Sequence record: OZ335964.1
Direction: 5' to 3' (one strand)
From: a phage
Length of the DNA: 64,000 bases
The notes below the pieces were generated by a model that saw only the letters and a list, made by a program, of their open reading frames with translations, did not search any database and had not been told where the DNA came from. This document shows positions 11,331 through 40,855 of the stretch, piece after piece. The stretch's first letter is position 1. Every line of letters begins with the position of its first letter. The position numbers were made by a program, and so were the translations under genes.

Positions 11331-11333
11331 TGC

Positions 11334-13052: not shown

Positions 13053-13330
13053 TGGGGGTGTATAGGGTTATAGCTGGAGCGAAACTGATAACCCAGACGT
13101 AGCATTTGCACCCTTCCGCACTATGCTGATGGTCGATGAAGCAGAATACGACACAGCAAAACGAATTGGTGCTCTTGCGTTCAATACATGGGCTAACTTC
13201 CATGCGAAAAAAGGTTTTGCTGCCGCTGTAAGTGAGGACGAAAATCAGAAAGCACGTCTTAACGCCGTTAAATGGGGTGCTGTCATTGAATCCGTCCAAG
13301 CTCAGTCACAACCATAATGGGGGTGTATAG
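12801..13330. repeat. Perfect tandem duplication, 2 x 265 bp (12801-13065 and 13066-13330)
   Basis: Second unit repeats the last 84 codons, stop codon and 13-nt 3' flank of the 572-aa gene; identical translations appear twice in the ORF track on both strands. Confidence 0.85.
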
Positions 13331-14253: not shown

Positions 14254-14311
14254 TCCTATTTGTCGGGGAGAAATCCCCGACAACGTTTTCTAATATCAAC
14301 GAGGATATGAT

Positions 14312-21072: not shown

Positions 21073-21087
21073 AATAGCCCACTCCAT

Positions 21088-21113
21088 GAAAAAAGATCGC
21101 CCCGAAGGGCGAC
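21088..21113 (-). terminator. Terminator between the two hoc-like genes
   Basis: Minus strand: GTCGCCC-TTCG-GGGCGA then TTTTTT. Confidence 0.65.
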
Positions 21114-21121
21114 CATATTGA

Positions 21122-26574: not shown

Positions 26575-26982
26575 TTATCGTCCAGATTCTAGCATACGCA
26601 ACTCTATAGCATTCTTGATCGCGAATCCTCGTGATTTGATTATATCAAGAGCCTTGCCAGCAAAATCCATAACCATTTGATAATAAGCAATTTTTGTATC
26701 AATTGGTAGGATCTCGTCGTCTGCCGTCATAACTACTTTCAATTCGGTTGAAGAGTATTCAACTCGACACCACTCATCGCTACGGTTAGTATAAAAATCA
26801 AGTTTATTCTTAACCGCTTTCTTTTTCTTTGCTTCCAGCGCAATGATCTCGCGCTTTGCTTCACTATACACACGAAGCCATTTAGAGTAAACTACAGGGT
26901 TGTTAAGTGCTTCCCATTGCAGCTTAGTAGCATCGATCTTCACATCTGCGTCAAGCTGGTCTTTTAGTTCATTCAGATCCAT
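26575..26982 (-). CDS. uvsY: UvsY recombination mediator
   Basis: Aligns with T4 UvsY (KLQWEA, YSKWL, KSRGFAIK); start set at MDLNELK with RBS GAGG. Confidence 0.85.
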   Translation of the reverse strand: MDLNELKDQLDADVKIDATKLQWEALNNPVVYSKWLRVYSEAKREIIALEAKKKKAVKNKLDFYTNRSDEWCRVEYSSTELKVVMTADDEILPIDTKIAYYQMVMDFAGKALDIIKSRGFAIKNAIELRMLESGR

Positions 26983-26997
26983 AATAAAATACCTCAA

Positions 26998-27384
26998 TCA
27001 CTTAGACAATCTTACTTTGAGTTGTTCTAACTCATCTGGATTATCTATAACGGAAAAGTAAACAGTAACAATAATAGAGTTCTCATCATACTGCGGAGTA
27101 ACGTCTACGTCAAGTCTTTTTACGCGTGGTTCGTAATTCCTGATCGCCTCGTTAATGTTCTTAGACAGGGTATCCACTGTCAGTGGGTTGATGTTCTCAA
27201 ACAGTGCTCGGTTTAAGTCGCACCCAAAGTTGGGATCGAACGGGCGAGACCCCTTAGTGGTTGTGATGATCAGTAATAAGGAATCTTTAACCGCTTTAAT
27301 CCCTGTATTCTTCTTTAAATCGTTGTTCCATGCTCGCTTAAACTCTAGGTTTAAGTCAGTGTACATCTGGTTAACTGTTGTCAT
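26998..27384 (-). CDS. 25: Baseplate wedge protein gp25
   Basis: Aligns with T4 gp25 (ITTTKGSRPFDPNFGCDL, NYEPRV, FSVIDNPDE). Confidence 0.88.
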   Translation of the reverse strand: MTTVNQMYTDLNLEFKRAWNNDLKKNTGIKAVKDSLLLIITTTKGSRPFDPNFGCDLNRALFENINPLTVDTLSKNINEAIRNYEPRVKRLDVDVTPQYDENSIIVTVYFSVIDNPDELEQLKVRLSK

Positions 27385-27391
27385 AACTACC

Positions 27392-28030
27392 TCAAAGGAT
27401 CGTTAGAAATTCATTAAGACCCCTGATCGAATGAATACCGGACTCCCCACACTCACATTTGATCGGTACTGCCAGTGTGATTTGTGGACCTGTCAATTCA
27501 TCGATGATAGTCTCTACGTGTTCTGTTGTCAACATGCTTAGTATGGTGTCGAAGTCTTGCTCGTTTAGGTCATTAATATCAAATTCCTGATTATCTATGA
27601 CAATATAATCAATACAAGCAATTACCATCTGCATGATATCGTCATCTTCTGTAAAACGCGGAGGACGGAATTTAATTTTAACCCCTCCTAAATCTAACAG
27701 ATATGGTTCTGTGTCTGGGATCTGTGTCCGTTCAACGTTAAGATTGTATTCTTTCTCTTTGTTACATACTCCACACACCCACGTAGATTTGAAATTTTCT
27801 TTTGCTAGGCTATGACACCATAGCATAAGGAATAGATATTCAGCCTCGCACTTCTCTAGCTCTAATGCGTTAATTCCTGTACATTCATTGATAATGTCTA
27901 ATACCGCTTCCTTAAGACGTCCAGTGCTCTTATATTCTACTAATTTTTGAAATTCTTCATAGGTGAATGCTCTAGCGGTGATCGTCTTATCACCTAACTT
28001 GATCTTGAAAATATGTTGCATAGTATACAC
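27392..28030 (-). CDS. 26: Baseplate hub protein gp26-like
   Basis: 212-aa ORF divergent from 51, as in T4. Confidence 0.7.
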   Translation of the reverse strand: MYTMQHIFKIKLGDKTITARAFTYEEFQKLVEYKSTGRLKEAVLDIINECTGINALELEKCEAEYLFLMLWCHSLAKENFKSTWVCGVCNKEKEYNLNVERTQIPDTEPYLLDLGGVKIKFRPPRFTEDDDIMQMVIACIDYIVIDNQEFDINDLNEQDFDTILSMLTTEHVETIIDELTGPQITLAVPIKCECGESGIHSIRGLNEFLTIL

Positions 28031-28056
28031 CTCTTATGATACATAGAAATTATTTA

Positions 28057-28064
28057 GTATTTTA
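28057..28064 (+). promoter_or_regulatory. T4-type late promoter TATAAATA (gene 51)
   Basis: Exact TATAAATA about 25 nt upstream of the gene 51 start, in the 26/51 divergent region. Confidence 0.55.
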
Positions 28065-28089
28065 TAAATACCCGAAAGGGGGGTGTATT

Positions 28090-28863
28090 ATGAATGTTAT
28101 ACGAATTAAAATGCCAGATGGCGGGGCTAAACGTTTTAAGCCATTCACTGTAAAAGATTATCGTGATTTTCTTTTAGTTTCTGCTGATATGAAGGGCAAT
28201 CCATCGGAGGAACAATTGATTCTAGATGAATTGTTGGAGGAATTATACCCTGATGTGGACCCGATATTCCGAGAATATATTTTCCTGAACGTTTTTACTA
28301 GCTCAATAGGTAAAACAAAATTACCACTTTCTTTTAAGTGTCCAACCTGTGGTAAGGAAAAACGAATACTGTTAAACCTTGCGGTTCCAGCACTACATCC
28401 AATAGTCCTAGAAACGGCTGGGCTTAAAATTAAATTTAAGTATGTGAAACCATCAACCGACTACGCAAAAACGTTTCTAGAAGCGATTGAGAGCGTTTCT
28501 GACGGTGATAATGAGTATGCATGGACCGAATTGTCAGAGGAAGTGCGCGATCAGGTTATAGATTCTATATCCTTCGCAGAATTTGAAACAGTAGTAAAGA
28601 AAATGCACACCATTTTGATTGAACAGAAGATCAAATGCTGCGATACACACGAATTAAGATACACCGATTTACTAGGGCTTTATAAGCTACTTCTGAATCC
28701 AGATGAAATTTTTACTTTTTATAGGATCTCGCATTTACTTGTAAAAAATAACTACTCATTTGGTGATCTGATGAATATGATCATGGTCGAAAGGAATATA
28801 GCATTGGCGCTAGTTGAAAAGGACGTTAAGGAGGCTAATAATGCAAAGACCCGGATTTCCTAA
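28090..28863 (+). CDS. 51: Baseplate hub assembly protein gp51-like
   Basis: Start at MNVIRIK with RBS GGGGGG; TATAAATA at 28057. Confidence 0.7.
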   Translation: MNVIRIKMPDGGAKRFKPFTVKDYRDFLLVSADMKGNPSEEQLILDELLEELYPDVDPIFREYIFLNVFTSSIGKTKLPLSFKCPTCGKEKRILLNLAVPALHPIVLETAGLKIKFKYVKPSTDYAKTFLEAIESVSDGDNEYAWTELSEEVRDQVIDSISFAEFETVVKKMHTILIEQKIKCCDTHELRYTDLLGLYKLLLNPDEIFTFYRISHLLVKNNYSFGDLMNMIMVERNIALALVEKDVKEANNAKTRIS

Positions 28864-29950
28864 TGTCTCCATAAAGCTATATCAGGATTATGAGGCATTT
28901 TCAGAAAACAGATTTGTTGAGTTAGGTGCTACGTTCATTACTATGACTCTTCGTGATTCCTTACGCGGAATTAATGAGGGGCTATTGCAGATCTATGATT
29001 CCAAAGCCCTACATACAAAATTGACAGGAACAGAGATAATACAAATTTCACTATCAACGGCTAATACTGAACAAGTATTCAACCGTGTATATGGTATCGC
29101 TCATAGTAACGTAACCGTTGATGCTAAGGGTGATAATATCATAACATTCCAGTTGAAAAGCTATCATGAAACATTGAATCGAAAATTTTCTCGCGCCACT
29201 GACACTAACGCGGTTAATAACGTTACAAGTATGATTGATGCCATTTATAAGGATGTTCCATTGTGGAAGCCTAAAATTACTGGCGTAAACGTTTTTATTC
29301 CTAAGTGTCCGTGGGTAAGTACCATCAATGACTATTTTGAATATATCCGCACGCATGGTCAAAGCGTAGATAATGAATCATTTGTCTATTGCTGGGAAGA
29401 TTTCGACGGGATCAAGATCACCGATCACAAGTTGTTAATGGAAAGTGATCCGATTCCTGCCATCGTCACAGAGCCGACCTTGATGGGGCAATTTATGGAT
29501 ATGAGTAATTATTTGATGGTTTTCAACTTTGAATGGGATACTAAGAGTAACGCGGTTACGAAAAATTCATTCAATAACGTTACTTACACTACCATAGACT
29601 TCATCACAAAACAGTATAATAAAATCATTGTTGGTGATGGGGATAATATAGCACACTTCGCGCATGGTGGCGCTTATGGTAATCTGACATATAAAAACGC
29701 ATATCTCGAAGGAACTAAACTAGCAACTTTTGGACAATATGACTCATATGCTAGCGCGGTATGTCATGGTAATTTCTCGTTACGTCCGGCACAAAAACTT
29801 AGATTCTTTGATGCCAAACAGCAAATTAGAACAGATTTTATTGTTGATGAAATTGTCCATGAAATATGCCGTGAACAATCGCTAACACACATTCACATGT
29901 TTAGTCATAGCGAGATTTTGAAAGACGTTACATTTGAAGGTAAAATATGA
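28841..29950 (+). CDS. 27: Baseplate hub protein gp27
   Basis: Start MQRPGFPNVSIKLYQDY aligns with the T4 gp27 N-terminus; RBS AAGGAGG. Confidence 0.85.
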   Translation: MQRPGFPNVSIKLYQDYEAFSENRFVELGATFITMTLRDSLRGINEGLLQIYDSKALHTKLTGTEIIQISLSTANTEQVFNRVYGIAHSNVTVDAKGDNIITFQLKSYHETLNRKFSRATDTNAVNNVTSMIDAIYKDVPLWKPKITGVNVFIPKCPWVSTINDYFEYIRTHGQSVDNESFVYCWEDFDGIKITDHKLLMESDPIPAIVTEPTLMGQFMDMSNYLMVFNFEWDTKSNAVTKNSFNNVTYTTIDFITKQYNKIIVGDGDNIAHFAHGGAYGNLTYKNAYLEGTKLATFGQYDSYASAVCHGNFSLRPAQKLRFFDAKQQIRTDFIVDEIVHEICREQSLTHIHMFSHSEILKDVTFEGKI

Positions 29951-30468
29951 TGACTGATACTAAACCATCTTTAAAATTTGTCGTTCCTGTCAAGAATATC
30001 ACCGTTAACGGCAAACAAATCAAGATCCCCAAAATGGGGATCAAACAGCATAGACTATTAAAAGATGTTCGAAGCTGTGATGAGACTTTAAAAATTCTAC
30101 TTGATTCTATTCATCCGGGATTGAATGCGGCAGAAGCAGAATTTGTCATGCTTCATATATGCGCCTTTAATGGCAAGTGTCTAGAAGAAAAGGATGGCTT
30201 GCGACTGGATGATGTTTATATTTGTACGGAATCGGAGTTTGAATTTAATGGCGATAAATTCAAGTTTAACGCGCCTATGCTCTCTTCTGAATATACACAT
30301 GATGATGCAAATTTCCTAAGCAATCACTATCACGATCCTAGTGTAGACTTTCATAAATTCCCTGCGTTTATTATGAATTGGGCTACAGGATTAAGAAAAA
30401 CCGTTGCCTTAGATACTCCAGAAGGTACTATCTATGGTGGCATTAACATATTGGATCGCCTATCATGA
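29947..30468 (+). CDS. 28: Baseplate hub protein gp28-like
   Basis: 173-aa ORF translationally coupled to 27 and 29. Confidence 0.7.
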   Translation: MMTDTKPSLKFVVPVKNITVNGKQIKIPKMGIKQHRLLKDVRSCDETLKILLDSIHPGLNAAEAEFVMLHICAFNGKCLEEKDGLRLDDVYICTESEFEFNGDKFKFNAPMLSSEYTHDDANFLSNHYHDPSVDFHKFPAFIMNWATGLRKTVALDTPEGTIYGGINILDRLS

Positions 30469-32141
30469 ATGACGCATTAACATCATTTCGCGGAATGCGT
30501 AAAGACGCAGAAAATAATCCGCTTGATAAATTGGACAAATTAGATAAGCTGGATTCTATTGATAATCTTCAAGCTGCCAGTGAATTGGTAGCAGAGACAG
30601 TAGAACAAAAATCTAATGAAGTTATTGGAGCGGTGGAGGATAACACCGCTGCTAACGAATTGACGGCAGAGAATACCCAATCTACCGCCAGCAATACCCA
30701 AAAATCTTATGAGGAATTACAAAAACTGAATGATTTCTCTTCTCAAATGAACGAGAAATTACGCGGTTTTGGGATCATGATGGAACGCCGATTCAGTGTC
30801 GTTTCTAAGATCACCAGTGGCCTAGACGCAATTGAAAAGGCCATTAAGGACGAAAAACAGCCGGAACAGACTATGCCATCTCCTCAACCAGTTTTGCCTA
30901 CTGTACCGGAACAGCAAAATAACAATAACTATCCTACGTTACCTAAGAAACCTAAAGACGATAAGAAAAATAAAGATAAGAATAGCGACCATGACAATAA
31001 TATGCAAATGCTAATAAAAGTGGTTCGCGGTGGATTTAAAGAGACAGTCGGTGTAACAAACAAGATATTCTCTATGCTGTTCAAAATGACAGTGACCGCA
31101 TTGCTTGAAGTTGCTAAATGGGGTGCTATTCTTCTGGGGATCGTTGTTGCTGTTGATACTCTAATGATTCATTTTAGACACTGGAGCACATTATTTGACA
31201 AGAATTTCAAAGAATTTAAAGACAAGGCGGGTGATTGGGGACCTACGCTAGATAAAATTTTTAGTTCTGTTGAAAGTATACAAAACTATTGGGAAAATAA
31301 AGAATATGGTGAGCTTGTAGCTGAGCTTGTAACTGGTTTAACTGATGTATTGATAGATGCATTTTTTCAGCTTGACCGGATAATAACTAAAGGTCTTGCG
31401 TCAGTCCTTCGTTCTATTCCCGGTATGGGATCATTAGCGGATACTTTAGAGTATGGTGCATTGAAACAAGCACAATCTCGCAGTGGCATTAAAATGGATG
31501 ACCGAGAAAAAGCATTATATGCTCGTATGTCGAAAGAAGAAGATATTAAGAAAGGTATGCAGACTAAAGCAAAACTAGCAAATCAACAATATAGTGATGT
31601 TGCTAGTATGCAGGTTGAGCCTATTTTAACTAAACAAGAAACCTATGAAATTAATAGGATGAAAGAACTAAAAACTGTTAGTGATGATGCTTACAGAAAG
31701 AGCAGTGATATTACGGTTGATATCGAGGGTGATATGGTTAAAAATATCTCTATGTTAAAGACTGTGAAGCCAGGAACTCGACCGGATAAATTGTCTGTTC
31801 TTGATAAAGATGTTAACGAACATCGTAAAGCATTGGATAATCCAGATTTGCTTTCTACCGATAAGCAGAAAATTAAAGATCTTCTTGACCAATATGATCA
31901 GATTCGCGCGTCTAAAAATGTTCCTACTGTAACTCCGCCTCCGCCTGATGATACAGATACCGCAAAGCAAGCGAAATCAATAGAGCAAGGGCAATTGCAG
32001 AATATTAGAAACGATAATACGGTTACTAATACTGCTAACGTTGCCAATACGCAGATCTATAACAATAATAGGACAGTGCAGATAACTAGACCTCAAACTA
32101 ATACACCTTCTCCTGGACTATTACAAAAAGGAATAGTTTAA
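30465..32141 (+). CDS. 29: Baseplate hub / tail length determinator gp29-like
   Basis: 558-aa ORF with internal hydrophobic segment, in gp29 position. Confidence 0.75.
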   Translation: MNDALTSFRGMRKDAENNPLDKLDKLDKLDSIDNLQAASELVAETVEQKSNEVIGAVEDNTAANELTAENTQSTASNTQKSYEELQKLNDFSSQMNEKLRGFGIMMERRFSVVSKITSGLDAIEKAIKDEKQPEQTMPSPQPVLPTVPEQQNNNNYPTLPKKPKDDKKNKDKNSDHDNNMQMLIKVVRGGFKETVGVTNKIFSMLFKMTVTALLEVAKWGAILLGIVVAVDTLMIHFRHWSTLFDKNFKEFKDKAGDWGPTLDKIFSSVESIQNYWENKEYGELVAELVTGLTDVLIDAFFQLDRIITKGLASVLRSIPGMGSLADTLEYGALKQAQSRSGIKMDDREKALYARMSKEEDIKKGMQTKAKLANQQYSDVASMQVEPILTKQETYEINRMKELKTVSDDAYRKSSDITVDIEGDMVKNISMLKTVKPGTRPDKLSVLDKDVNEHRKALDNPDLLSTDKQKIKDLLDQYDQIRASKNVPTVTPPPPDDTDTAKQAKSIEQGQLQNIRNDNTVTNTANVANTQIYNNNRTVQITRPQTNTPSPGLLQKGIV

Positions 32142-32142
32142 T

Positions 32143-33189
32143 ATGAAAATTCAAATTTTGGATGATGCTAAAGATACTATTAATCGGGGTATCAAAGCAT
32201 CTGCTGGGTTTACTAAAAAACCAGATAATACAACATTAACCGCACAATTTCCGTCTGAACGAGCTAGCGGTAATGATACTTCTGGTATATACATAAATGA
32301 CCTTTATAATAACGGCTTGTTGTTTACTGCCTATGATTATAAAGAGCGTGTTACCGGTTCTCTTCGAAATTTCAGAAACGAACATAGTACATTGCGTGGA
32401 TTTGGTGCACAAGGAAAGATAAGCGACAAGGAATTTTATCAAACATCTTTTGATCGCGAGGCTGTTGCTAATATCCTACTTCCTCGTAGTCAATCCGATG
32501 TTGACTCGGTGAGTCATAAGTTTAATGATGTGGGTGAATCTCTCGTTACACGTGGTGGTGGCACTATTTCTGGTGCGTTGTCTGCTATGGCATCAACCGC
32601 CGTATTTGGTGGTTTGGAGAGTTTAACGGGTGGTTATCTTGCCGATAAAAACGAACAGATTTATAATACCGCTCGTAGCATGTATGCTGGCGCAGATCCT
32701 AGAACTAAAAACTATGTTTGGCACTTAACACCACGTAGTATTGAAGACCTGCGCAATATATTGATTATCTATGAAACTTTTGTAGAATTGTCTTATGGTT
32801 CCAGCGGTATTTCTAGCACAGCAAAGCAATTAAAAGCGGAAGTTGATGCATGGTATAAAAAGACAATTCTTTCTAAGACGGTTCCAGAAGGAGCGGATAC
32901 TTCCGGTACTTTGTTTGAGGGCATAACAGACTTTTTGACCAACGTGACCACGGTATCGAATCCGACTATATGGATGATCTCTAACTTTGGTAAACGTTCT
33001 GCTTATGAAGGTCGTAGCGACGTTTTCGGTCCAGCGCAAATTACTAACGTAAGGCTTGACAAATCACCAGACGGTAAATTTGGTGGTTTGGCTATTTCTC
33101 CTAACTTGCCTAGTACCTTCGTTCTGGAAGTATCGTTCAGGGAGATTCTTACTCTTTCTCGCGGTACTGTGTTTGGGAGTTCATTATAA
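32143..33189 (+). CDS. 48: Baseplate tail-tube cap gp48-like
   Basis: 348-aa ORF in gp48 position and size range. Confidence 0.8.
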   Translation: MKIQILDDAKDTINRGIKASAGFTKKPDNTTLTAQFPSERASGNDTSGIYINDLYNNGLLFTAYDYKERVTGSLRNFRNEHSTLRGFGAQGKISDKEFYQTSFDREAVANILLPRSQSDVDSVSHKFNDVGESLVTRGGGTISGALSAMASTAVFGGLESLTGGYLADKNEQIYNTARSMYAGADPRTKNYVWHLTPRSIEDLRNILIIYETFVELSYGSSGISSTAKQLKAEVDAWYKKTILSKTVPEGADTSGTLFEGITDFLTNVTTVSNPTIWMISNFGKRSAYEGRSDVFGPAQITNVRLDKSPDGKFGGLAISPNLPSTFVLEVSFREILTLSRGTVFGSSL

Positions 33190-34118
33190 TGTTTGATTTA
33201 AAAGATTTCAACGAACAAGCCGCAAATCTTGATTTTCAGCGTTCTAATCTATTTTCGGTGGCATTTGCCACCGTTCCTAGTAGCAAGACACAGCAAATTT
33301 TAGAAAATTTTGGTGGTGCTATTCATGATATTATACCAGGTAAATTAAATGATTATTTTGGTATCACAGAGGGTGATTATACCGATGCTGTAAAAAATTT
33401 GGCTATACATGGAGTGCGCAGAGCCGTTACATCGTCAGGTGTCAAAAAGTATCTTTTGGGTGCAATGTCATCCCGTGTAGTTCAATCTCTTTTGGGGCAA
33501 TTTGAAGTTGGTACATATGTCATGGATTGGTTCAACATGGCATATAAGACAAGCGGTTTGATGGTATATGCTGTTAAGGTTCCAGAAAACCGATTGAGTT
33601 ATGAAATGGACAGAAACCACAATGCGCCTAACATTAGAATTACTGGACGTGATTATGACCCGTTGATTCTTAGCTTTAGAATGGACGCTAGCGCGTCTAA
33701 TTACAGGGCGATGCAGGATTGGGTTAACTCTGTAGAAGACCCCGTTACAGGGCTTCGTGCGCTTCCTGTAGACGTTGAAGCAGATATTCAAGTTAACCTA
33801 CATAATCGCATGGGTGTACCTCACACTATCATGATGTTTAATGGTTGTGTTCCTGTTGGGGTTAGTGCACCTGAGTTGAGTTATGAAAACAACAACGAGA
33901 TCACTACATTCGACGTGACGTTTGCTTATAGGACAATGCAAGTTGGTGCTGTTGGTGAGCAAGCCGCTAGAGAATGGATTGAAGATAAGGCCATAAACCT
34001 TATTCAAAATACTATAGGTGAGGGTAAAACAGGTTCATTAACTTCTGCTGGTAGTGCATTATCTAGATTGCAGGGTGTTGGTGGTAGGGTAGTTAATACT
34101 ATCACTAGATTATTTTAA
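33189..34118 (+). CDS. 54: Baseplate tail-tube initiator gp54-like
   Basis: 309-aa ORF in gp54 position; bidirectional terminator follows. Confidence 0.8.
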   Translation: MFDLKDFNEQAANLDFQRSNLFSVAFATVPSSKTQQILENFGGAIHDIIPGKLNDYFGITEGDYTDAVKNLAIHGVRRAVTSSGVKKYLLGAMSSRVVQSLLGQFEVGTYVMDWFNMAYKTSGLMVYAVKVPENRLSYEMDRNHNAPNIRITGRDYDPLILSFRMDASASNYRAMQDWVNSVEDPVTGLRALPVDVEADIQVNLHNRMGVPHTIMMFNGCVPVGVSAPELSYENNNEITTFDVTFAYRTMQVGAVGEQAAREWIEDKAINLIQNTIGEGKTGSLTSAGSALSRLQGVGGRVVNTITRLF

Positions 34119-34121
34119 TAC

Positions 34122-34148
34122 AAAAAGGGGGCAAATGCCCCCTTTTTT
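34122..34148. terminator. Bidirectional terminator between gene 54 and the convergent lipoprotein gene
   Basis: AAAAA-GGGGGC-AAAT-GCCCCC-TTTTTT. Confidence 0.75.
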
Positions 34149-34653
34149 AATTTAGCAGATCTTCACACTGTTTACGCAGTTTATGACGATATTCTTTAGA
34201 TTGCAGTAGTTGTACTTTTTCATAATCCCCTATTTCATATGCATTTGAGAGATCATCCTGATATGCTGCCTCTGTACCAATTCGGCAAATGTCGTATTGA
34301 CGGGCTTTTTTCAAATCTAATTGTTCTCTCTCAAATTCTTTTCTTCGTTTTTCTTCTCGCTCTTGATACTTTTTATTTTGATATTCGATGTTGCTCTTAA
34401 TCTCTGCAATTCGTTGCTGTGCTTCTTGTGGCAATCCTACACGCAAAGCGGCTTCATCTTTTTTCTGTAACAGGTCGATAACACAGTATTCTGGTTCTTG
34501 ATAAGTCTGATTACCATGTGGATGGTAGTACCAACGAGCGCAATGTTCTTCGATTGACTGTATAGAAGCCGTAGCCGTTCGATAGTCTTTAATATTAGCA
34601 CAACCAGTTAACATGAATACAGCCGCAAGTCCGATTGGTTTAATCATTTTCAT
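34147..34653 (-). CDS. Predicted lipoprotein
   Basis: Signal peptide with lipobox (AAVFMLTGC); charged helical remainder; translationally coupled to the upstream ART-like gene. Confidence 0.55.
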   Translation of the reverse strand: MKMIKPIGLAAVFMLTGCANIKDYRTATASIQSIEEHCARWYYHPHGNQTYQEPEYCVIDLLQKKDEAALRVGLPQEAQQRIAEIKSNIEYQNKKYQEREEKRRKEFEREQLDLKKARQYDICRIGTEAAYQDDLSNAYEIGDYEKVQLLQSKEYRHKLRKQCEDLLN

Positions 34654-35474
34654 TTAGTCACCTCACCGAAAATTGTAAATTGTCTACGATTCTCATCGCC
34701 GAAAGATTCTACTACGTCGTTTACCTTTATGCAAGTCCCGCGCGGTAAAATTACTTCACATTCGCAAGGATTCCATGCAATTGACCCAACAACAAAACCT
34801 TTATGATCTTTTACGTCAATTACCCATGATACATTACAAGAATGTTGCATCTTTCCGGTCATTGATTCATATCGATTCTCACAATAAAGGCTAGTGCTAT
34901 TTGAAAGCCAGCCTCCAAAGATGATCGGTGTCATGCTGGTCGACACAAAGTTTTTAAAGGTAAATTCCTTATCTTCAATAATACGCTCTATTGTCTGAAT
35001 GTCAAGATGTTGACCGCGATAAAGAGTACCGTTTAACTTTTCGGTTTTATCCATGACACAATCCATCAAATCGACGATCTCTGATATCTCATCGGTCATG
35101 TCTTCTTCCCCTAAGAGAGCACCATTTACCCATTCGTATTGTTCAGACACATAATCACAGATTGCATTATATTCTGCTGGGGTTATGTTGTTATGTTTGT
35201 AATGTTTGAACACATTATCTCCAAAGTCTTCAGAGTGTACTTCATACATCACATTAATGATTTTCTTGACAAATCCATAATCTTGTGTCTCGCGCTCAAG
35301 GAAGCGGATAACATTCACGTAATCATCAAAGTTAATCTGATCGCTGATCATCTCAGTGATCATGTAACCATTAATCCCCTCAATGTCATATGTTTCAATA
35401 TAATTGTCCATACGTTCCATCATTGATTCGCGTGATTCTTCCGAAAGACGAAAATCCTGTAATTTCTTGAACAT
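34650..35474 (-). CDS. Alt-like ADP-ribosyltransferase paralog
   Basis: R-S-E triad context: LYRGQ, FVSTSM, CECEVILPRG, parallel to the motifs in the alt-like ORF. Confidence 0.6.
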   Translation of the reverse strand: MFKKLQDFRLSEESRESMMERMDNYIETYDIEGINGYMITEMISDQINFDDYVNVIRFLERETQDYGFVKKIINVMYEVHSEDFGDNVFKHYKHNNITPAEYNAICDYVSEQYEWVNGALLGEEDMTDEISEIVDLMDCVMDKTEKLNGTLYRGQHLDIQTIERIIEDKEFTFKNFVSTSMTPIIFGGWLSNSTSLYCENRYESMTGKMQHSCNVSWVIDVKDHKGFVVGSIAWNPCECEVILPRGTCIKVNDVVESFGDENRRQFTIFGEVTK

Positions 35475-35552
35475 TTTAAACCTCCCATATAACAGAAAAC
35501 GGGGCTAGTATAAAACTAGTCCCCGTTTGAGTCAACCATTATTTCTTAAAAA

Positions 35553-37604
35553 TTACATTTTAAATTTATCTGGCATAGCGTCTACAGATACCAGATCAGC
35601 GATAAGCTGACGTAGAGTTGCCTTATCTGCTTTCTTACGTTCGGTTTTAGCTTCGGTAATAAAGCTGGAGAAAGACAGGTCAGAAGCAGGTTTAACAACA
35701 CCTTCACGGATGAATGCATCACCGTCCGCGATCATCTCGCCAGATTCTTGTAATGCTGCCAGTTCATTTTTGTTCATAATATGTGCCTCAATGTAATAAG
35801 TTTCTTGTGAATCCGTCGATGCCGTAGCACGAGTTACCGTATCAAAGGATAACACAACACCGCGAGGAAGTAAAATCTCGCATTCTTTGTAAGCAAATGC
35901 TTTGTTACCTACTGGCAATACAGGGATGTTTTCCGCGCCAGCAATGGAGAAAGCAACATTAGCGCCACCTTCACCGCGAGATCCAGCCATAGAATCTACA
36001 CCAGCAACGGCACTAGCCACGTTTGCATTCCAGCCACCAAAAATGTTAGGTGCAAGGGAAGTGCTCACATAGTTTTTAAAGTAAAACGCTTTTTGCTTAC
36101 GTGCAGTTTCCCACATTTGAGACCGGAAGTCCATACCACGATACAGAATAGTACCAGGATCAAGTTTAACGCCATAGTTAGAGAAGGCATTATCCAGTGC
36201 ATCGCACATCTTGACCAATTCTTCTGGATCTGCGATGCCTTCAAACTCTTCCAGCTTACGGTCGGTTAGGAAGTTGTTCATATTGATGTATGCTGCATCG
36301 GCATATTCGCTCAACACAAAACCTTCCGCGCCAGGCAGATCAAGATCAATATCTGCCATCATTTCACCCATGTTGCTAGCAATTGCTTCAAACATACCGG
36401 AAGCAACATTACGTAGGGCATCGGTTTTAATCTGGGTGATATGACTACGCAGCATTTCAGCTTTTACATCTGCTGGCATAGACTGGTCTACTCGATCCAT
36501 TGCCAGTGCGGTGATCTTGTTTTCGAATACTTCCTCGCTCATGATTTCTTTTAAGCGTTTGATTGATGCTGCGATAACTTCCGCAGACAACGGATCATAT
36601 TGATCCTGAACTTTTACCAGTTCACTTACTGCGTATTTTGCATCGGCTTCGCTTTCAAAAATAGTACGCATGAAACCATAGCGAGTGATAATATCACTTG
36701 TCCAGTCATTCAGAGAACGGGCGGTTGAACGTTCTAAGGCTTGACGATCAATCAGAGTATTAAACTGTTTCTTAGGTTCGGCTTCGGTGATATCTTCTTC
36801 CGGTTTAAGATTAATTTTTTCTGGATGATTCACATAGTCGCTGTTATAGGTCGCTTGAGTTTTCAGCATTTCTTCTTTAGTCAAACGAGACTTAGCCGCT
36901 ACACGTTGTTCTGCTTCCGCGTTTCGTTCTTCTTCTGATGCAAGGCTAGCCGCATACGCTTCATCTTTAGTCAGAGATTCACCAGTAGCTTTAGATACCC
37001 AGCGATCACCTAAATCACTTTCTACTTTAGTGAACAGGGAATCATCAAGTTTAATCCCTTTAATCTTATCAATCGACATCCCGCGACGCTTGACAACAAC
37101 TAAAGCGATCTTTTTGCTGGTCATTACTTCCTGCTGGAATACTTCAAACTTAGGAGTACGACGCACCAAACGCTCTATAACGCGCTTAACCAGTTCGGTC
37201 TTACCTTTCATGCGGGATACGTTAAAACGGAACATAACAGCGTCTAATTGCGCTTTACGGGCTGTTTCCATAACCACATCAAAAGCACTTGCCATAACTG
37301 CAATCGGGTTATCGCCTAGACCATTTTTAAGCTGTACAATACGACCGCTTTTGTTCATCTCGCACAGTACAACATGTGCGGTCTTGTCACCCATACGAAT
37401 GATTTTAGGTGTTTTGTTGGTGAAGTTACAAAGACGGACAATCACATCTTTATCGCGTGTCTGTACTGCAAAAAGCTGTTTAGGGTTCTGCTTAGGCTTT
37501 AAGCACTGTACCGGAGCAATACTACCAAAGTTTTCTTCCTCTTCCGTCAACAGCCATTTCTCGAAAGATTCAATCATTAGATCGTCGATTTCTAAGTTAA
37601 ACAT
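35553..37604 (-). CDS. alt: Alt ADP-ribosyltransferase (internal head protein)
   Basis: 683 aa, T4 Alt-sized; C-terminal ART motifs ILYRGMD, YVSTSL, ECEILLPRG; position after gene 54. Confidence 0.8.
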   Translation of the reverse strand: MFNLEIDDLMIESFEKWLLTEEEENFGSIAPVQCLKPKQNPKQLFAVQTRDKDVIVRLCNFTNKTPKIIRMGDKTAHVVLCEMNKSGRIVQLKNGLGDNPIAVMASAFDVVMETARKAQLDAVMFRFNVSRMKGKTELVKRVIERLVRRTPKFEVFQQEVMTSKKIALVVVKRRGMSIDKIKGIKLDDSLFTKVESDLGDRWVSKATGESLTKDEAYAASLASEEERNAEAEQRVAAKSRLTKEEMLKTQATYNSDYVNHPEKINLKPEEDITEAEPKKQFNTLIDRQALERSTARSLNDWTSDIITRYGFMRTIFESEADAKYAVSELVKVQDQYDPLSAEVIAASIKRLKEIMSEEVFENKITALAMDRVDQSMPADVKAEMLRSHITQIKTDALRNVASGMFEAIASNMGEMMADIDLDLPGAEGFVLSEYADAAYINMNNFLTDRKLEEFEGIADPEELVKMCDALDNAFSNYGVKLDPGTILYRGMDFRSQMWETARKQKAFYFKNYVSTSLAPNIFGGWNANVASAVAGVDSMAGSRGEGGANVAFSIAGAENIPVLPVGNKAFAYKECEILLPRGVVLSFDTVTRATASTDSQETYYIEAHIMNKNELAALQESGEMIADGDAFIREGVVKPASDLSFSSFITEAKTERKKADKATLRQLIADLVSVDAMPDKFKM

Positions 37605-37645
37605 TTTATATCCTCTAGTTGATAACCTATAAACCTATATTTATG

Positions 37646-37672
37646 AAAAAAGGGGCTTAACGCCCCCTTTTT
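37646..37672. terminator. Bidirectional-type terminator upstream of alt
   Basis: AAAAAA-GGGGC-TTAAC-GCCCC-CTTTTT. Confidence 0.65.
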
Positions 37673-37673
37673 A

Positions 37674-37886
37674 TTATAATGCACCATCAAGCAATTGCTC
37701 TAAGGTGTATCCTGAATAGTCTTTTTCAATCAGGATATATTTTCCTACTCGTTTAATCCAGCCACGCATTTCAACGTATTCTGCGTAGTTGATAGTGCGA
37801 GTTGTTCCATCTTCTAGCAAAGCAGTACCGATTTCGTTAATGCGGTCATAAGTTACGTCGGTGATGATGATTTCGATGTTAGCCAT
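37674..37886 (-). CDS. Hypothetical protein
   Basis: 70-aa ORF behind a conserved early promoter cassette. Confidence 0.5.
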   Translation of the reverse strand: MANIEIIITDVTYDRINEIGTALLEDGTTRTINYAEYVEMRGWIKRVGKYILIEKDYSGYTLEQLLDGAL

Positions 37887-37921
37887 TTGATACTCCTTAG
37901 TAGTTCGTTTCGGTATGTGTG

Positions 37922-37950
37922 CATTATAGGGGATCGATGATCCCCTGTCA
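37922..37950 (-). promoter_or_regulatory. Early sigma70-like promoter cassette (TTGACA-N17-TATAAT) with palindromic spacer
   Basis: Minus strand: AAAAAGTTGTTGACA GGGGATCATCGATCCCC TATAAT, then conserved leader ACCGAAACGAAC and RBS before ORF 37886. Confidence 0.6.
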
Positions 37951-37958
37951 ACAACTTT

Positions 37959-38477
37959 TTAGTTATTTTTTAATTGCTCATCTTGCAATAAAGCAATCAC
38001 ATGCTGGCGATGTTCTTCCGACTGAGGCACACCGAAAAAGTTTGTTTTGTAGAAATACTCTAATCGGTCTTCTCGTGTGCTCTCTTCCATCATGATCGCG
38101 GGTAGTCCGAGATTTCGGAAACGTCGCTTTTCTGCTGGCGTAAAATCGCTGTAATACAGCATAGAATCATCATTACCAGCAATGCTAAACTCATCCTTCA
38201 TGAAAGAGAATATTGCGTTTAAACGCTGTTTACCGTCCACGATTTCGATCTCATAGCGAGAGCCATCATCAATCTTAGCCATTGCGATAGCACCAACCGG
38301 AAAATCATTAATCAGGTTTTCGATAAACATACGTTTGTTTTCTGTGTCCCATACTAAAGGACGCTGATAATCTGGGTTCATGTTGATAAAGCCATCTTCT
38401 AGCCATGCTTCATAGACAGATATGACAAAGTTTTTAGTATTGGTATAGTAACGGCGTTTAGGCGTTAAACGGTTCAT
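37959..38477 (-). CDS. DUF262 / ParB-like domain protein
   Basis: Motifs PDYQRPLVW and IVDGKQRLNAI match the DUF262 (GmrSD N-terminal) signature; start set at MNRLT with RBS AGGAGA. Confidence 0.5.
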   Translation of the reverse strand: MNRLTPKRRYYTNTKNFVISVYEAWLEDGFINMNPDYQRPLVWDTENKRMFIENLINDFPVGAIAMAKIDDGSRYEIEIVDGKQRLNAIFSFMKDEFSIAGNDDSMLYYSDFTPAEKRRFRNLGLPAIMMEESTREDRLEYFYKTNFFGVPQSEEHRQHVIALLQDEQLKNN

Positions 38478-38478
38478 G

Positions 38479-38811
38479 TTATAGTCTCCTGAATGGATCA
38501 TCACGTAAATCAATATCTTTTAAGAACTCATCCCATGAATGGCGGATATTGTTCTTAATTCTCCAGATAAGCGCAGGGATTGAACGCTCTCCCATCTGGA
38601 AGTAAGGATCATATGATCCGTATGCCCAATATGCTACTACAATTCCACAATCAGCGCAATAGTATTCTATTTCACTTGCTGGCGACCAAAGTCCATCAAT
38701 ATGATCGGTGATCTTGCTTTCGATGTTATGGCTATGGCAATCAGGGCAACGGATGCAATGACCTTGTTTATCGTAATTTGACGTTAGCGAATACTTAAAC
38801 AATCTCATCAT
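38479..38811 (-). CDS. Zinc-ribbon protein
   Basis: CIRCPDC...C..C..YYCADC cysteine pairs; translationally coupled between the MTase-like and DUF262-like genes. Confidence 0.45.
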   Translation of the reverse strand: MMRLFKYSLTSNYDKQGHCIRCPDCHSHNIESKITDHIDGLWSPASEIEYYCADCGIVVAYWAYGSYDPYFQMGERSIPALIWRIKNNIRHSWDEFLKDIDLRDDPFRRL

Positions 38812-39572
38812 AGATCCTTATTGGCTTCAAATACTGCCTTTGCGAATCCTCGCGGGGTAAGTGACCTGATAGTCTTTGTTCTGGTTCCTTTCCCGCCTAG
38901 CTTAGAATGCTGTTTACTGTACCCTTTCTCAATCGGCAACGGTTTCTTTTCTGGCATTATAAAGCCTTGTCCGGTCCATAAGCAAGTCTTTTTCGGGTAC
39001 ATATCACGGGCGGCAATATACTCAGGAAACGTAGGATGTATATCATCTTCCGGCAAATAACCGCCATATTCCCACGGGTGGAACATGTAATCAGGCTTAC
39101 GCCACATGCTAGAGATAACGCTTACAGGATTCTCTATCATGTAGGGAACTCCTAGCCATTCACCCAAATAAGCTGTTATTTTAGCTGCCCGTACATCATG
39201 AACTTGAATTAATGGTCCTTGCTCTCGTTTCTTTCGTTCAAAGTGTGCAGCGCCACTAACAGCTAAATTTGAACAGCTAGGAAACGCAAAGATCATATCC
39301 GGTTTGCCCCATTCAAGATCCATCGCCCTTTCCAACCAATCCAGATCTATCCATGAATTAACATAAGTTAAATTTGGGTGTTCAAATCGAGTGTTATACT
39401 TTTTATATGTTCCATGATCGGCATCATCAGCATTAAAGCAGATCACTTTATGACCTGCTTTAGCCCATTCTAGACCCATAATACCGGACCCATCGAATGT
39501 ACAAAATATAAGTTTACTTTCCGTGGTTTTCATGATAGCCATACTCTCTTTCTGCTTTGGTTCTAACTGCAA
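38808..39572 (-). CDS. SAM-dependent methyltransferase-like protein, possibly DNA cytosine-C5 type
   Basis: Motifs FDGSGIMG (motif I-like), FPSCSNLAVSG (PC-like), MIENP (ENV-like); true start probably an internal Met because of overlap with the upstream HNH gene. Confidence 0.4.
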   Translation of the reverse strand: MQLEPKQKESMAIMKTTESKLIFCTFDGSGIMGLEWAKAGHKVICFNADDADHGTYKKYNTRFEHPNLTYVNSWIDLDWLERAMDLEWGKPDMIFAFPSCSNLAVSGAAHFERKKREQGPLIQVHDVRAAKITAYLGEWLGVPYMIENPVSVISSMWRKPDYMFHPWEYGGYLPEDDIHPTFPEYIAARDMYPKKTCLWTGQGFIMPEKKPLPIEKGYSKQHSKLGGKGTRTKTIRSLTPRGFAKAVFEANKDL

Positions 39573-40050
39573 CGGCTTCTTCTAGTGTGTCGAAACACCC
39601 TAGATATTTTCTATCACCGCGTCGACCGCCGCCAATTCTAACTACCCATTTATTGTATTTGTTTTTATGTATTCCACTATGTCCGCTTGTATTCTTTTTA
39701 GACTTTGTTTGATTTCTCATGTTGTCGCGGTGTAGTTTAAGTTCAAAGTTAACCGCTCTATTATCTGTCTTAATGTGATTAATATGATCTACTTCATATC
39801 CTTCTGGTATAGGTCCATTGTGGATAATATAACATACTCGATGAACTTTGTAGTTAATAATTTTACCGTCAATTTTTATTGACGATTCAAGATAACGTCC
39901 ACCACTTCCTAGTGACCCGACCTCCTTTCCAGCCCATGCAGCATTCCATTGTTTTATTCTTGATGGGTGTATATCTGTTCTCTCCTTCCATGTAAGGATA
40001 CCAGTGTCAGGATCATAATTAAAGTATTTCTTCCAGTCTATATTGTTCAC
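39514..40050 (-). CDS. HNH homing endonuclease with AP2 DNA-binding domain
   Basis: HNH core (YEVDHINHIKTDNRAVN) and AP2-like region (KWVVRIGGGRRGDRKYLGCFDTLEEAVAVR). Confidence 0.75.
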   Translation of the reverse strand: MNNIDWKKYFNYDPDTGILTWKERTDIHPSRIKQWNAAWAGKEVGSLGSGGRYLESSIKIDGKIINYKVHRVCYIIHNGPIPEGYEVDHINHIKTDNRAVNFELKLHRDNMRNQTKSKKNTSGHSGIHKNKYNKWVVRIGGGRRGDRKYLGCFDTLEEAVAVRTKAEREYGYHENHGK

Positions 40051-40381: not shown

Positions 40382-40855
40382 TTATTTGCACCAAATTCGA
40401 ATTATTTCGTCTCGTTCAAATTTCTGCCAGATTACTCGGTCACCCGCTGCCATGATACTGACAAATCCAGTTGTGTTTCCTGTGTACTTGCTTTTAGTCT
40501 CGGCATCATATTCAAAGAATGGTGCTTTAAGATCGCTAAACTCATCTTTTCCCACAAACTTCATAACATGACGATGCGCGTAATATTCGCTTCTTAGTGT
40601 TGTTGTGATAGTTCCGTCATTATTTGATTTCAGATGTAATTCTGCATCTTCATAAAGACTTGCATCTCGTTGTTTACTTTCAATACCGTCGTTATATGTT
40701 GATTTCGTTGCACTCCAACATTGATAAGTTTTATCAACATTTTCGATCTTTTCCTGTGTCATATCAAAAAGCGGTGCAACCTTTTTCTTAGCCGCGTGTG
40801 CTACGTTGGTCATGGACAGTGCTGCAACAACCACAATAGCAATAATCTTCTTCAT
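40382..40855 (-). CDS. Secreted/periplasmic protein
   Basis: N-terminal signal peptide (MKKIIAIVVVAALSMTNVAHA); RBS AAGGAGA. Confidence 0.55.
   Translation of the reverse strand: MKKIIAIVVVAALSMTNVAHAAKKKVAPLFDMTQEKIENVDKTYQCWSATKSTYNDGIESKQRDASLYEDAELHLKSNNDGTITTTLRSEYYAHRHVMKFVGKDEFSDLKAPFFEYDAETKSKYTGNTTGFVSIMAAGDRVIWQKFERDEIIRIWCK

Follow-up and report, generated by a model that had tools for sequence, protein, structure and literature searches.

We propose that the alt locus in the stretch of phage DNA analyzed here (sequence record OZ335964.1, 64,000 nucleotides; hereafter the window) is divided into two separately timed transcription units, one consisting of alt alone and the other of an early, catalytic-only copy of Alt together with a variable envelope lipoprotein. 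For this explanation as a whole we estimate a probability of about 0.55. The phage is an RB49-type coliphage (Krischvirus), and because the gp48/gp54 block adjoining the locus is only 76–87% identical to that of RB49, we place it in the JK32/Whisky lineage. In the direction of minus-strand transcription the gene order is alt (35553..37604, 683 aa), a 274-aa ADP-ribosyltransferase (34650..35474; hereafter the short ART), and a 168-aa lipoprotein (34147..34653), in agreement with the coordinates given in an earlier reading of the DNA made from its letters alone (the sequence-only reading). The lipoprotein gene is convergent with gp54 (33189..34118, plus strand), from which it is separated by a terminator hairpin, GGGGGC-ATTT-GCCCCC, at 34122..34142 (read from the sequence and its predicted fold, −20 kcal/mol). 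A T run follows the stem on the minus strand and the A run before the stem gives T's on the other strand; a counterpart of the hairpin was found in RB49 and in the metagenomic locus L006.

The arrangement of the short ART is already known. RB49 (NC_005066) has the same genes in the same order, RB49p183 and RB49p182, with a short ART 99.3% identical to that of the window. RefSeq labels RB49p183 as [quoted passage not shown], and RB49ORF183c was given as a paralogous duplication of alt by Nolan et al. in 2006 (PMC1524935). Tandem copies of alt are common among T4-type phages. The observation of the tandem genes repeats this RB49-type annotation and publication, and the T4-type picture of host takeover is unchanged by it.

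Full-Length Alt and Its Upstream Signals

T4 Alt is a packaged, arginine-specific ADP-ribosyltransferase of the Alt/VIP2 R-S-E clade, and its gene is at the same locus, beside the baseplate genes 48 and 54. The 683-aa protein of the window matched T4 Alt over its full length (27% identity over 695 columns, E 1e-61), is 99% identical to RB49 Alt, and was assigned to phrog_802 (9e-181) and PF03496 (2.4e-09). It has the full architecture, with an N-terminal region of ~330 aa and a conserved C-terminal tail flanking the ART domain, and by homology it would be a packaged, injected enzyme.

An intrinsic terminator on the minus strand (37648..37672; stem GGGGC/GCCCC and a T run) closes the upstream early gene, a 70-aa ORF at 37674..37886, and is predicted to isolate alt from early transcription. 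This arrangement before alt was also seen in RB49 and in L006, a distant locus. A late-promoter-like motif, CATAAATA, lies at 37638..37645 on the same strand, 41 nt upstream of the alt start codon, and L006 carries AATAAATA in its place. Only 15 NATAAATA sites occur in the 64-kb window when both strands are counted, and most of these are 32–61 nt upstream of a same-strand gene start, a spacing like that of the alt site; those whose genes were identified precede late genes (e.g., gp18, gp22, gp23, and gp24). In the mechanism we propose, this first unit, with alt behind a terminator and a late-type promoter, would supply the full-length enzyme, which on the T4 model is incorporated in the head and delivered by injection.

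The Short ART Is an Intact Paralog of Alt

The short ART, the ortholog of RB49p183, matched phrog_15144 (3e-197) and passed the curated cut-off of Pfam family PF03496 (ADPrib_exo_Tox) with 58.2 bits versus 23.4 (E 9e-16, residues 82–266). Its motifs are LYR153GQ (Y152-R153-G154), S178-T179-S180, and E238-C-E240 followed by VILPRG, with minus-strand codons at 35018-35016 (R153), 34943-34935 (S-T-S), 34763-34761 (E238), and 34757-34755 (E240). These motifs align with those of Alt in the window (37% identity over 109 aa), of Tre1 (PDB 6dre), and of T4 Alt, which shares the catalytic domain (31% identity over 181 aa, E 1.5e-22), and the catalytic residues are invariant in the 9–10 relatives aligned, down to 24% identity. 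The tandem ARTs with an R / S-T-S / E-x-E arrangement described in the sequence-only reading are thus borne out, with Alt in phrog_802, the short ART in PF03496, and their catalytic motifs co-aligning; the alignment of catalytic domains that it had named as a check revealed no lost catalytic residue. An E-x-E motif predicts arginine-specific mono-ADP-ribosylation, and this is the activity we would expect of the short ART. Its AF2 model (pLDDT 85, pTM 0.85) has a C3/VIP2-like ART fold: Foldseek matched the model with probability 1.0 to Vis, C3bot2, CDTa, Certhrax, and iota Ia (E 7e-11 to 1e-8), and Tre1 was also among the structure matches.

The short ART aligns only to positions 330–602 of the 674 in phrog_802. 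It stops short of Alt at both ends, by the first ~330 and the last ~70 residues, and has none of the ...MPDKFKM tail, a conserved C-terminal feature common to Alt and intermediate forms. A copy of this kind might be a decaying, inactive remnant of an alt duplication, comparable to alt.-1 and alt.-2 of T4, which are degenerate alt remnants at the equivalent position. However, what remains in T4 is N-terminal and split into pieces of 61 and 67 aa, whereas the copy in the window retains the whole catalytic domain, with invariant catalytic residues, a confident ART fold, and a dN/dS of 0.03–0.05. Its length is also steady across 41–99% identity (272–288 aa, in six protein clusters, down to 41%), and it is present in 59 of 59 Krischvirus records at 97.1–99.3% identity to that of the window. 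The idea of a decaying remnant is, in our view, close to refuted. The gene has its own promoter-like cassette (described below) and its own Shine-Dalgarno sequence, GGGAGG (35481..35486, minus strand, sequence read), which ends 6 nt upstream of the ATG at 35474. The claim in the sequence-only reading that the short gene is an independent, intact paralog of Alt, and not a fragment, is supported by these features.

A PeSL-Type Cassette and the Timing of the Short ART

Between alt and the short ART there is a PeSL-type cassette on the minus strand (35496..35535; promoter scan score 10 of 12). Its features occur in the order expected of such elements: an AT-rich TTTTTAAGAAATAATGG, a −35 box TTGACT (35535-35530), a 17-nt spacer, a −10 box TATACT (35512-35507) that deviates from consensus, and a stem-loop, AAACGGGGACTAG...CTAGCCCCGTTT (35528-35498), that overlaps the −10 box and has a T tract after it (35499-35496), with GGGAGG and the ATG following. 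The hairpin is present in the predicted fold (whole-intergenic MFE −22.3 kcal/mol), and the element is kept, with compensatory stem changes, in L006, L009, and L010, whose ARTs have no more than 41–47% identity. The NATAAATA late motif was not found within 120 nt upstream of the short ART. Two points count against the proposed mechanism: the −10 box is not the consensus, and the PeSL stem-loop could allow some late alt transcripts to continue into the short ART.

PeSL cassettes of this kind in RB49 and phi1 were found by experiment to be strong early promoters and terminators: with lacZ as reporter they reached ~13,000 Miller units, and their termination was about on a par with that of rrnB T1 (PMC2839356). 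The class described there in which a polyG/polyC stem-loop overlaps the −10 box fits the cassette in the window. PeSLs are associated with the most variable genes, and set against the RB49/phi1 PeSLs of Arbiol et al. (2010) and Comeau et al. (2014), that of the window is in a conserved module and not in a hyperplastic region. By its sequence anatomy and by analogy with these elements, the window's cassette is a putative strong sigma-70-type early promoter fused to a terminator that would end alt transcription.

Because the short ART is truncated and has a PeSL upstream, while alt instead stands behind a terminator and CATAAATA, we consider it most likely that the short ART is an early product and stays out of the virion. 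The comparison with T4 Alt points the same way: the short ART has neither the N-terminal region, the C-terminal tail, nor the late promoter, and since an early-type promoter precedes it instead, it is probably not a virion protein. The sequence-only reading had taken it for a packaged internal protein, a premise that these differences do not support.

The opposing view is that the short ART is a second packaged head protein, expressed late when transcripts from the alt promoter read through, directed by its N-terminus into the prohead core, cut by gp21 after L-S-E12, and injected. Its N-terminus, MFKKLQDFRLSE/E, does contain (L/I)-x-E, the T4 prohead protease motif (L10-S11-E12), and I-K-E or L-Q-E occurs among the first 13 residues of distant short ARTs. 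Short ARTs also begin with MF or MFN, like Alt, packaging is presumed for every full-length tandem copy of alt in other genera, and T4 gpAlt sheds only a small N-terminal peptide (PMC9958956). However, the motif is short and common, being expected by chance within the first 20 residues of roughly one protein in five, and it is missing near the N-terminus of the L009 short ART. Packaging would also have to proceed without the first ~330 residues of Alt, without the C-terminal tail that Alt and the intermediate forms have in common, without a late motif upstream, and from a gene separated from alt by a terminator-like stem-loop and a sigma-70-type promoter that are kept across deep divergence. 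We judge a packaged short ART to be unlikely.

On the reading that the short ART is early, the second unit would be bicistronic under the PeSL, and its first gene would encode an Alt paralog cut to the helical-plus-catalytic part (Alt residues ~330–600) with all of its NAD-binding and catalytic residues kept. This enzyme would be newly synthesized in the cytoplasm during early infection, where it would modify host proteins. T4 has early ADP-ribosyltransferases of about 200 aa, ModA and ModB, and by analogy the short ART probably resembles them as a small stand-alone R-S-E ART acting from an early promoter after infection. It would do so though unrelated to them: BLASTP of the short ART against ModA and ModB gave no detectable relationship (E above 0.5 for both), and their genes are at a different locus. 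The single Krischvirus Mod-like gene, RB49p014, is beside srd (33% identity to ModB, E 8e-10), and a second Mod-like gene was not found in RB49. Krischvirus phages, which are used in phage-therapy collections, carry three ADP-ribosyltransferases. A stand-alone Alt catalytic domain could have its own target, as the sequence-only reading had raised, for example a host defence protein instead of RNA polymerase, and a catalytic-only copy behind an early-type promoter would be a clean reagent for studying the function of the Alt domain without delivery from the head.

The ART–Lipoprotein Pair and Its Relatives

Duplication of alt at this locus, upstream of gene 54, is also seen in Dhakavirus KIT01 (three copies), Moonvirus NM4.3 (two copies), and Aeromonas phage 44RR (ORF187c/188c; PMC1524935). 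The tandem copies of other genera are about 680–707 aa, whereas the second copy in the window is the catalytic part with its own promoter/terminator cassette. The KIT01 and NM4.3 copies are 3–35 nt apart and therefore leave no room for a PeSL-like cassette, and downstream of the tandem arrays comes alt.-3 (DUF5498) in place of a lipoprotein gene. The pairing of short ART and lipoprotein was found in the metagenomic loci L006–L009, in which the ARTs are only 41–47% identical. Upstream of the pair there is a full-length alt in L006 and L007, a truncated 588-aa ORF in L009, and a 63-aa fragment in L008.

In the window, the short ART stop and the lipoprotein start overlap as ATGA (34653-34650). 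This translational coupling and the adjacency of the two genes hold in every relative found, among them phages with ARTs of 41–47% identity, and could indicate that their products form one functional pair, an enzyme with a partner, inhibitor, or immunity protein, which would explain the lasting association. ART toxin/immunity pairs are known, and Tre1-Tri1 (6dre) was among the sequence and structure matches of the short ART. However, the export signal and four invariant cysteines of the lipoprotein point to the periplasm, whereas the ART lacks a signal peptide and depends on NAD in the cytoplasm. A near-invariant ART (97–99%) beside lipoprotein alleles that are 28–78% identical is also the opposite of what co-evolving partners would display, and we regard a functional pair as quite improbable. 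Since we read the short ART as early and unpackaged, the lipoprotein, which the sequence-only reading had found to be unusual company for a packaged protein, would be ordinary early-gene company.

The Lipoprotein: Predicted Export and Possible Role

The lipoprotein gene (34147..34653, minus strand) is the positional ortholog of RB49p182, to which its product is 34–35% identical overall and 27% identical over the mature part. The ORF begins MKMIKPIGLAAVFMLTGC, and the signal peptide (34600..34653, minus strand, sequence read) has a basic n-region, MKMIK, a hydrophobic h-region, PIGLAAVFM, and a lipobox, L15-T16-G17-C18, that fits [LVI][ASTVI][GAS]C, its Cys18 encoded at 34602-34600. All members of the family, distant ones included, have G17 and C18, and the coupled, lipobox-containing gene reported in the sequence-only reading is confirmed. 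The mature protein is all-alpha, and four of its cysteines (C38, C57, C123, and C163) are invariant. This is not a chance ORF: it is at the same position in 59 of 59 Krischvirus records, and its dN/dS is ~0.08 (window versus JK32). The family numbers about 10 clusters among 1.8 billion proteins; Pfam and NCBIfam searches returned weak signal-peptide matches and no family beyond these, and a PDB fold search returned no match.

The residue at +2, after Cys18, is Ala in the window and Val or Ser in homologs, and not Asp, so that by the E. coli +2 rule an outer-membrane lipoprotein is predicted. In the proposed mechanism, translation of the protein would be coupled to that of the short ART; after export it would acquire its lipid at Cys18, be sent to the outer membrane, and probably be held together by two disulfides.

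An outer-membrane protein with a periplasmic helical domain is broadly o-spanin-like, and the lipoprotein might belong to the lysis machinery, as an o-spanin or in lysis timing, with no part in exclusion or competition. However, RB49 has a spanin pair, pseT.2/pseT.3, already annotated elsewhere in its genome, and the lipoprotein gene is behind an early-type promoter without a partner i-spanin gene. Deep allelic diversity in one genus would likewise be unexpected of a spanin, which must match its i-spanin partner, and a lysis role appears very improbable.

Other early phage proteins are sent to the envelope, such as the outer-membrane lipoproteins Llp of T5 and Cor. T4 Spackle, which has two cysteines, is small, helical, and periplasmic. 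The likeness of the lipoprotein to Llp/Cor and to Spackle/Imm lies in envelope export and is an analogy only, as no similarity to known envelope exclusion proteins was found by sequence, profile, or fold. T4 Sp and Imm gave no tblastn match in the 64-kb window; in the RB49 genome Imm gave none, and Sp gave only an E 0.05 match inside gene 41, which is not credible.

Lipoprotein Alleles and Recombination

Across the 59 Krischvirus genomes the lipoprotein is only 28–78% identical to that of the window, which makes its gene the most variable of the region. Its 34% identity to RB49 is the lowest for a full-length ortholog in the window, while its neighbours are at 99% and 87%. Synonymous sites are saturated, with a dS of ~1.95 compared with 0.07–0.37 in the neighbours, and alleles within the genus are as divergent (28% identity) as those of distant phages. 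Because the synonymous sites are saturated while dN/dS is low, the variants are old alleles swapped by recombination and not the products of fast drift. The blastn breakpoint at which identity to RB49 falls is at 34582, right after the signal-peptide region, and that region (34600..34653) holds the 5′ recombination boundary of the variable cassette. We propose that otherwise near-identical phages exchange alleles by recombining within the conserved sequence of the signal peptide and within the 3′ flank.

The allele groups do not follow the type of the neighbouring gp48 or the gp37 tail-fibre tip, and gp5 is at least 98.8% identical among the records listed. Models of receptor masking or of Spackle-like self-exclusion are therefore unsupported by co-variation. 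The role we favor for the lipoprotein is envelope-level competition, for instance by excluding superinfecting phages or by interfering with other phages or with a variable host envelope component, although taken alone this assignment is tentative and stands at well below even odds. If it is true, the operon would couple cytoplasmic host takeover with exclusion at the envelope. At similarly low odds, the lipoprotein may found a new phage-only family, outer-membrane-anchored, disulfide-stapled, and helical, whose periplasmic action is directed at competing phages or at a host envelope component that varies, its ancient and interchangeable allelic cassettes being maintained as a balanced polymorphism behind an invariant early ART. 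The gene is the sharpest polymorphism in an otherwise near-identical block, and polymorphisms of this kind often mark phage–phage or phage–host conflict.

The alt Locus and the Short ADP-Ribosyltransferase

The window comes from a T4-type phage of the genus Krischvirus, and 59 phage records, including those of RB49, Phi1, JSE, JK32, and Whisky, match bases 33900-37900 at 94-98% nucleotide identity. The sequence-only reading had described three minus-strand ORFs in this region, and its coordinates proved to be exact: alt (35553..37604, 683 aa), a shorter Alt-like ADP-ribosyltransferase gene that we refer to as the short ART (34650..35474, 274 aa), and a lipoprotein gene (34147..34653, 168 aa) whose ATG overlaps the stop codon of the short ART as ATGA. 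All three are convergent with gene 54 on the plus strand (33189..34118). The 683-aa product is identified as Alt by its match to phrog_802 (9e-181), and shares 27% identity with T4 Alt over its whole length.

The short ART scored above the Pfam threshold for the ADP-ribosyltransferase exoenzyme family PF03496 (58 bits versus 23), and its motifs, Y-R153-G, S178-T-S180, and E238-C-E240, align with those of Alt (37% identity, catalytic core). R153, S178-T-S180, and E238-C-E240 were invariant across all relatives found, the most distant of which had 24% identity. The AlphaFold model of the short ART was confident (pLDDT 85, pTM 0.85) and matched the solved structures of Vis, C3, iota Ia, CDTa, Certhrax, and Tre1 with a probability of 1.0. 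Its dN/dS, in comparisons of the window with JK32 or RB49, was 0.03-0.05, which together with the motifs and the model supports that the short ART is an intact, constrained enzyme with predicted activity, and the sequence-only reading was right to take this gene for a paralog of alt. The E-x-E motif in this clade of ADP-ribosyltransferases predicts arginine specificity, and such specificity is predicted for the short ART.

If made early, the short ART would resemble ModA and ModB of T4 in function, although it is not related to them. ModB has been tested with NAD-capped RNA as a substrate. A single Mod-like gene, adjoining srd, is present in RB49, and Krischvirus, like T4, therefore has three ADP-ribosyltransferases. 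The possibility that the short ART is a full substitute for a missing Mod enzyme was rejected, as RB49 has that one Mod-like gene and only the second Mod is missing.

Duplication of alt has been noted before. Nolan et al. 2006 (PMC1524935) listed RB49ORF183c, 44RRORF188c, and T4 alt.-1/alt.-2 as paralogous alt duplications, the RB49 record annotates RB49p183, the counterpart of the short ART, as "similar to C-terminal part of T4 Alt protein", and one record (W115) already names the product of the next gene a putative lipoprotein. Tandem alt copies are common within the family: three full-length copies stand in tandem in Dhakavirus KIT01 and two in Moonvirus NM4.3, followed in each phage by alt.-3 and gene 54, whereas T4 has kept merely two small N-terminal remnants of an alt duplicate. 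The arrangement of alt and the short ART, being already annotated and published, is thus of low novelty. No earlier description was found of the cassette with its early-type promoter, nor of the way in which the lipoprotein gene behaves as a set of ancient alleles.

Transcription Signals and Packaging

The gap between alt and the short ART is 78 nt long and contains, in order, TTGACT, a 17-nt spacer, TATACT, a T tract, and GGGAGG ahead of the ATG of the short ART, with a stem-loop (AAACGGGGACTAG...CTAGCCCCGTTT, at 35528-35498) that overlaps the -10 box TATACT. This is the anatomy of the promoter/stem-loop cassettes (PeSLs) of RB49 and phi1, which in reporter fusions acted as sigma-70 promoters of very high strength and also terminated transcription efficiently (PMC2839356). 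The cassette was also present in metagenomic relatives whose short ARTs are 41-47% identical to that of the window. At that distance both promoter boxes were unchanged and the stem had compensatory changes, and the cassette is therefore conserved better than the genes surrounding it.

Upstream of alt there is a terminator and then the motif CATAAATA, 41 nt before the alt start. The window has only 15 NATAAATA sites on both strands together, most of which precede the start of a gene on their own strand by 32-61 nt, and the sites assigned to genes belong to late genes (e.g., gp18, gp22, gp23, and gp24). A scan of both strands of the window found no NATAAATA in the 120 nt upstream of the short ART. 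The most economical reading of these signals is that alt would be expressed late and its product packaged, and that the short ART and the lipoprotein would form an early unit.

The sequence-only reading had taken the short ART for a packaged internal protein, and this was not upheld, given the PeSL-type cassette, the lack of an upstream late motif, and the parts of Alt that the short ART does not have. It covers only positions 330-602 of the 674 in the Alt profile, and is without the first ~330 residues of Alt and the conserved C-terminal tail ending MPDKFKM. In alignment A3 this tail (DGD.L.E.G ... P.KF..) is common to window Alt (residues ~610-683) and P0018 and P0019, two relatives of intermediate length (415 and 316 aa), and the short ARTs are without it. 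Head incorporation is one possible role of the tail. It is also possible that the short ART is packaged and that the prohead protease acts on its N-terminus, as the protein starts like Alt and has a potential cleavage site, L-S-E, at residues 10-12, although that motif is too short to carry much weight. From its signals and domain content, we consider that the short ART is probably not a packaged protein. A literature search found no virion proteomics or transcript data for Krischvirus.

A further PeSL was observed at 37923-37951 on the minus strand, and belongs to the class in which the stem-loop separates the two promoter boxes. It is a perfect sigma-70 promoter (TTGACA-17-TATAAT) with the palindrome GGGGATCATCGATCCCC in its spacer, and is upstream of a 70-aa ORF (37674..37886).

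The Lipoprotein and Its Alleles

That the gene downstream of the short ART is a real lipoprotein gene was confirmed, as its product starts with MKMIKPIGLAAVFMLTGC, which has the form of a standard lipoprotein signal and includes a lipobox. The residue directly after the lipobox cysteine is Ala. Under the E. coli sorting rule, Ala in that position directs a lipoprotein to the outer membrane, and this location is predicted for the phage protein. Its family comprised 11 clusters among 5.8 billion proteins, and a profile search of 1.84 billion representatives returned about ten true members; all members were from Krischvirus-like phages. Searches for remote homology of the lipoprotein returned nothing informative.

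In the relatives with 41-47% identical ARTs, a lipoprotein gene again comes directly after the short ART, either overlapping it or a short distance away, and its product has the same pattern of cysteines. The next gene is convergent, and in the metagenomic loci L006-L008 it is gene 54. Upstream of the short ART, L006 and L007 have a full-length alt, L009 has an ORF with a truncated 588-aa product, and L008 has only a 63-aa fragment.

Among the 59 Krischvirus records, the short ART was 97.1-99.3% identical to that of the window. A band of 60-80% ART identity in 10 records of a tblastn summary was discarded, as weaker hits had been merged in; the stricter search gave the higher range in 59/59. 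The lipoproteins of these records formed groups with 76-78%, 46-47%, and 28-35% identity to that of the window. As allele groups, a window/JK32 type, an E26 type, and an RB49 type were distinguished. In global alignments with RB49, the short ART, Alt, and gp54 were 99.3%, 99.0%, and 87% identical, respectively, and the lipoprotein 35% (33.7% in a tblastn scan), with 27% in its mature part. Among all full-length orthologs in the 64-kb window, the lipoprotein shows the weakest conservation relative to RB49, and the breakpoint in nucleotide identity is at 34582, directly past the signal-peptide codons.

Fast positive selection was rejected as the cause of this divergence, since in the comparison with JK32 the dS of the lipoprotein gene was saturated at about 1.95 and its dN/dS was about 0.08. 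The dS values of its neighbours were 0.17 (short ART), 0.065 (alt), and 0.37 (gene 54). The divergence is old, not fast. Alleles within the genus (28% identity, mature part) are as distant as those of distant relatives, and two allele groups have almost identical C-terminal 45 residues and different N-terminal halves. The saturated dS, low dN/dS, within-genus distances, and shared C-terminal residues argue that the lipoprotein gene is a cassette whose alleles are ancient and individually held under purifying selection, and that phages exchange these alleles through recombination between the conserved sequence of the signal peptide and the 3' flank.

At a distance of 6 kb from the lipoprotein, the window encodes another exported protein that is variable. 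This 157-aa protein (40382-40855, minus strand) belongs to no Pfam family and starts with a signal peptide that looks cleavable (MKKIIAIVVVAALSMTNVAHA). It is only 57% identical to its RB49 ortholog, with neighbours at 95-99%.

Possible Roles of the Lipoprotein

Co-variation gave no support to either receptor masking, as by Llp of T5, or Spackle-like self-exclusion against the tail lysozyme. For the former, co-variation with the gp37 tail-fibre tip was absent: the tips of phages with the 46-47% allele are 79-94% identical to that of RB49, a range overlapping that of phages with the RB49-type allele. For the latter, the identity of gp5 is 98.8% or higher throughout the Krischvirus records listed, and gp5 so cannot drive lipoprotein diversity. 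Linkage to the divergent baseplate-hub block was likewise rejected; phages with the 46-47% allele include some with the 88% gp48 type and some with the 76% type, and the lipoprotein cassette therefore moves independently. In RB49, tblastn detected no homolog of T4 Imm, and T4 Spackle gave only a spurious match (E 0.05) inside gene 41. The missing homologs leave room for another envelope-level exclusion function, but prove nothing. The ART and the lipoprotein are unlikely to be direct partners, as the two are expected in different compartments and very different lipoproteins are paired with a nearly invariant ART.

Other Features of the Window

Relative to RB49, identity is 82-98% for the head and tail genes of the window and mostly 93-100% for its early genes to the right of 34582. 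In the baseplate-hub block (26575-34118; genes 25, 26, 51, 27, 28, 29, 48, and 54), the proteins are 65-87% identical to those of RB49, a drop that suggests module-scale exchange; JK32 and Whisky have the same hub type. Between gp23 (9262-10848) and gp24 (16443-17684) there is a gap of about 5 kb (11022-16177) that looks like an insertion amid the head-gene module. Its ORFs encode a 572-aa protein without a Pfam hit, a 307-aa protein, and a 621-aa protein that is a long coiled coil and matches tropomyosin and the alanine zipper, and none has an RB49 counterpart. On the minus strand in 19837-23665, hoc shares only 55% identity with its RB49 counterpart. The protein beside it, of 847 aa, contains several immunoglobulin-like domains (Ig_3, E 2e-41), has only 25% identity to RB49 across 43% of its length, and may be a second, larger capsid-decoration protein.

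Two nuclease-type proteins are encoded on the minus strand near alt. One is a 178-aa HNH endonuclease (39514-40050; HNH_3, E 7e-15), probably of the mobile homing type, for which tblastn gave no match in those RB49 regions that were searched. The other, of 184 aa (37959-38513), has at its N-terminus a domain of nuclease type, GmrSD_N (DUF262; E 6e-20). Its RB49 counterpart, annotated as a hypothetical protein, is 98% identical.
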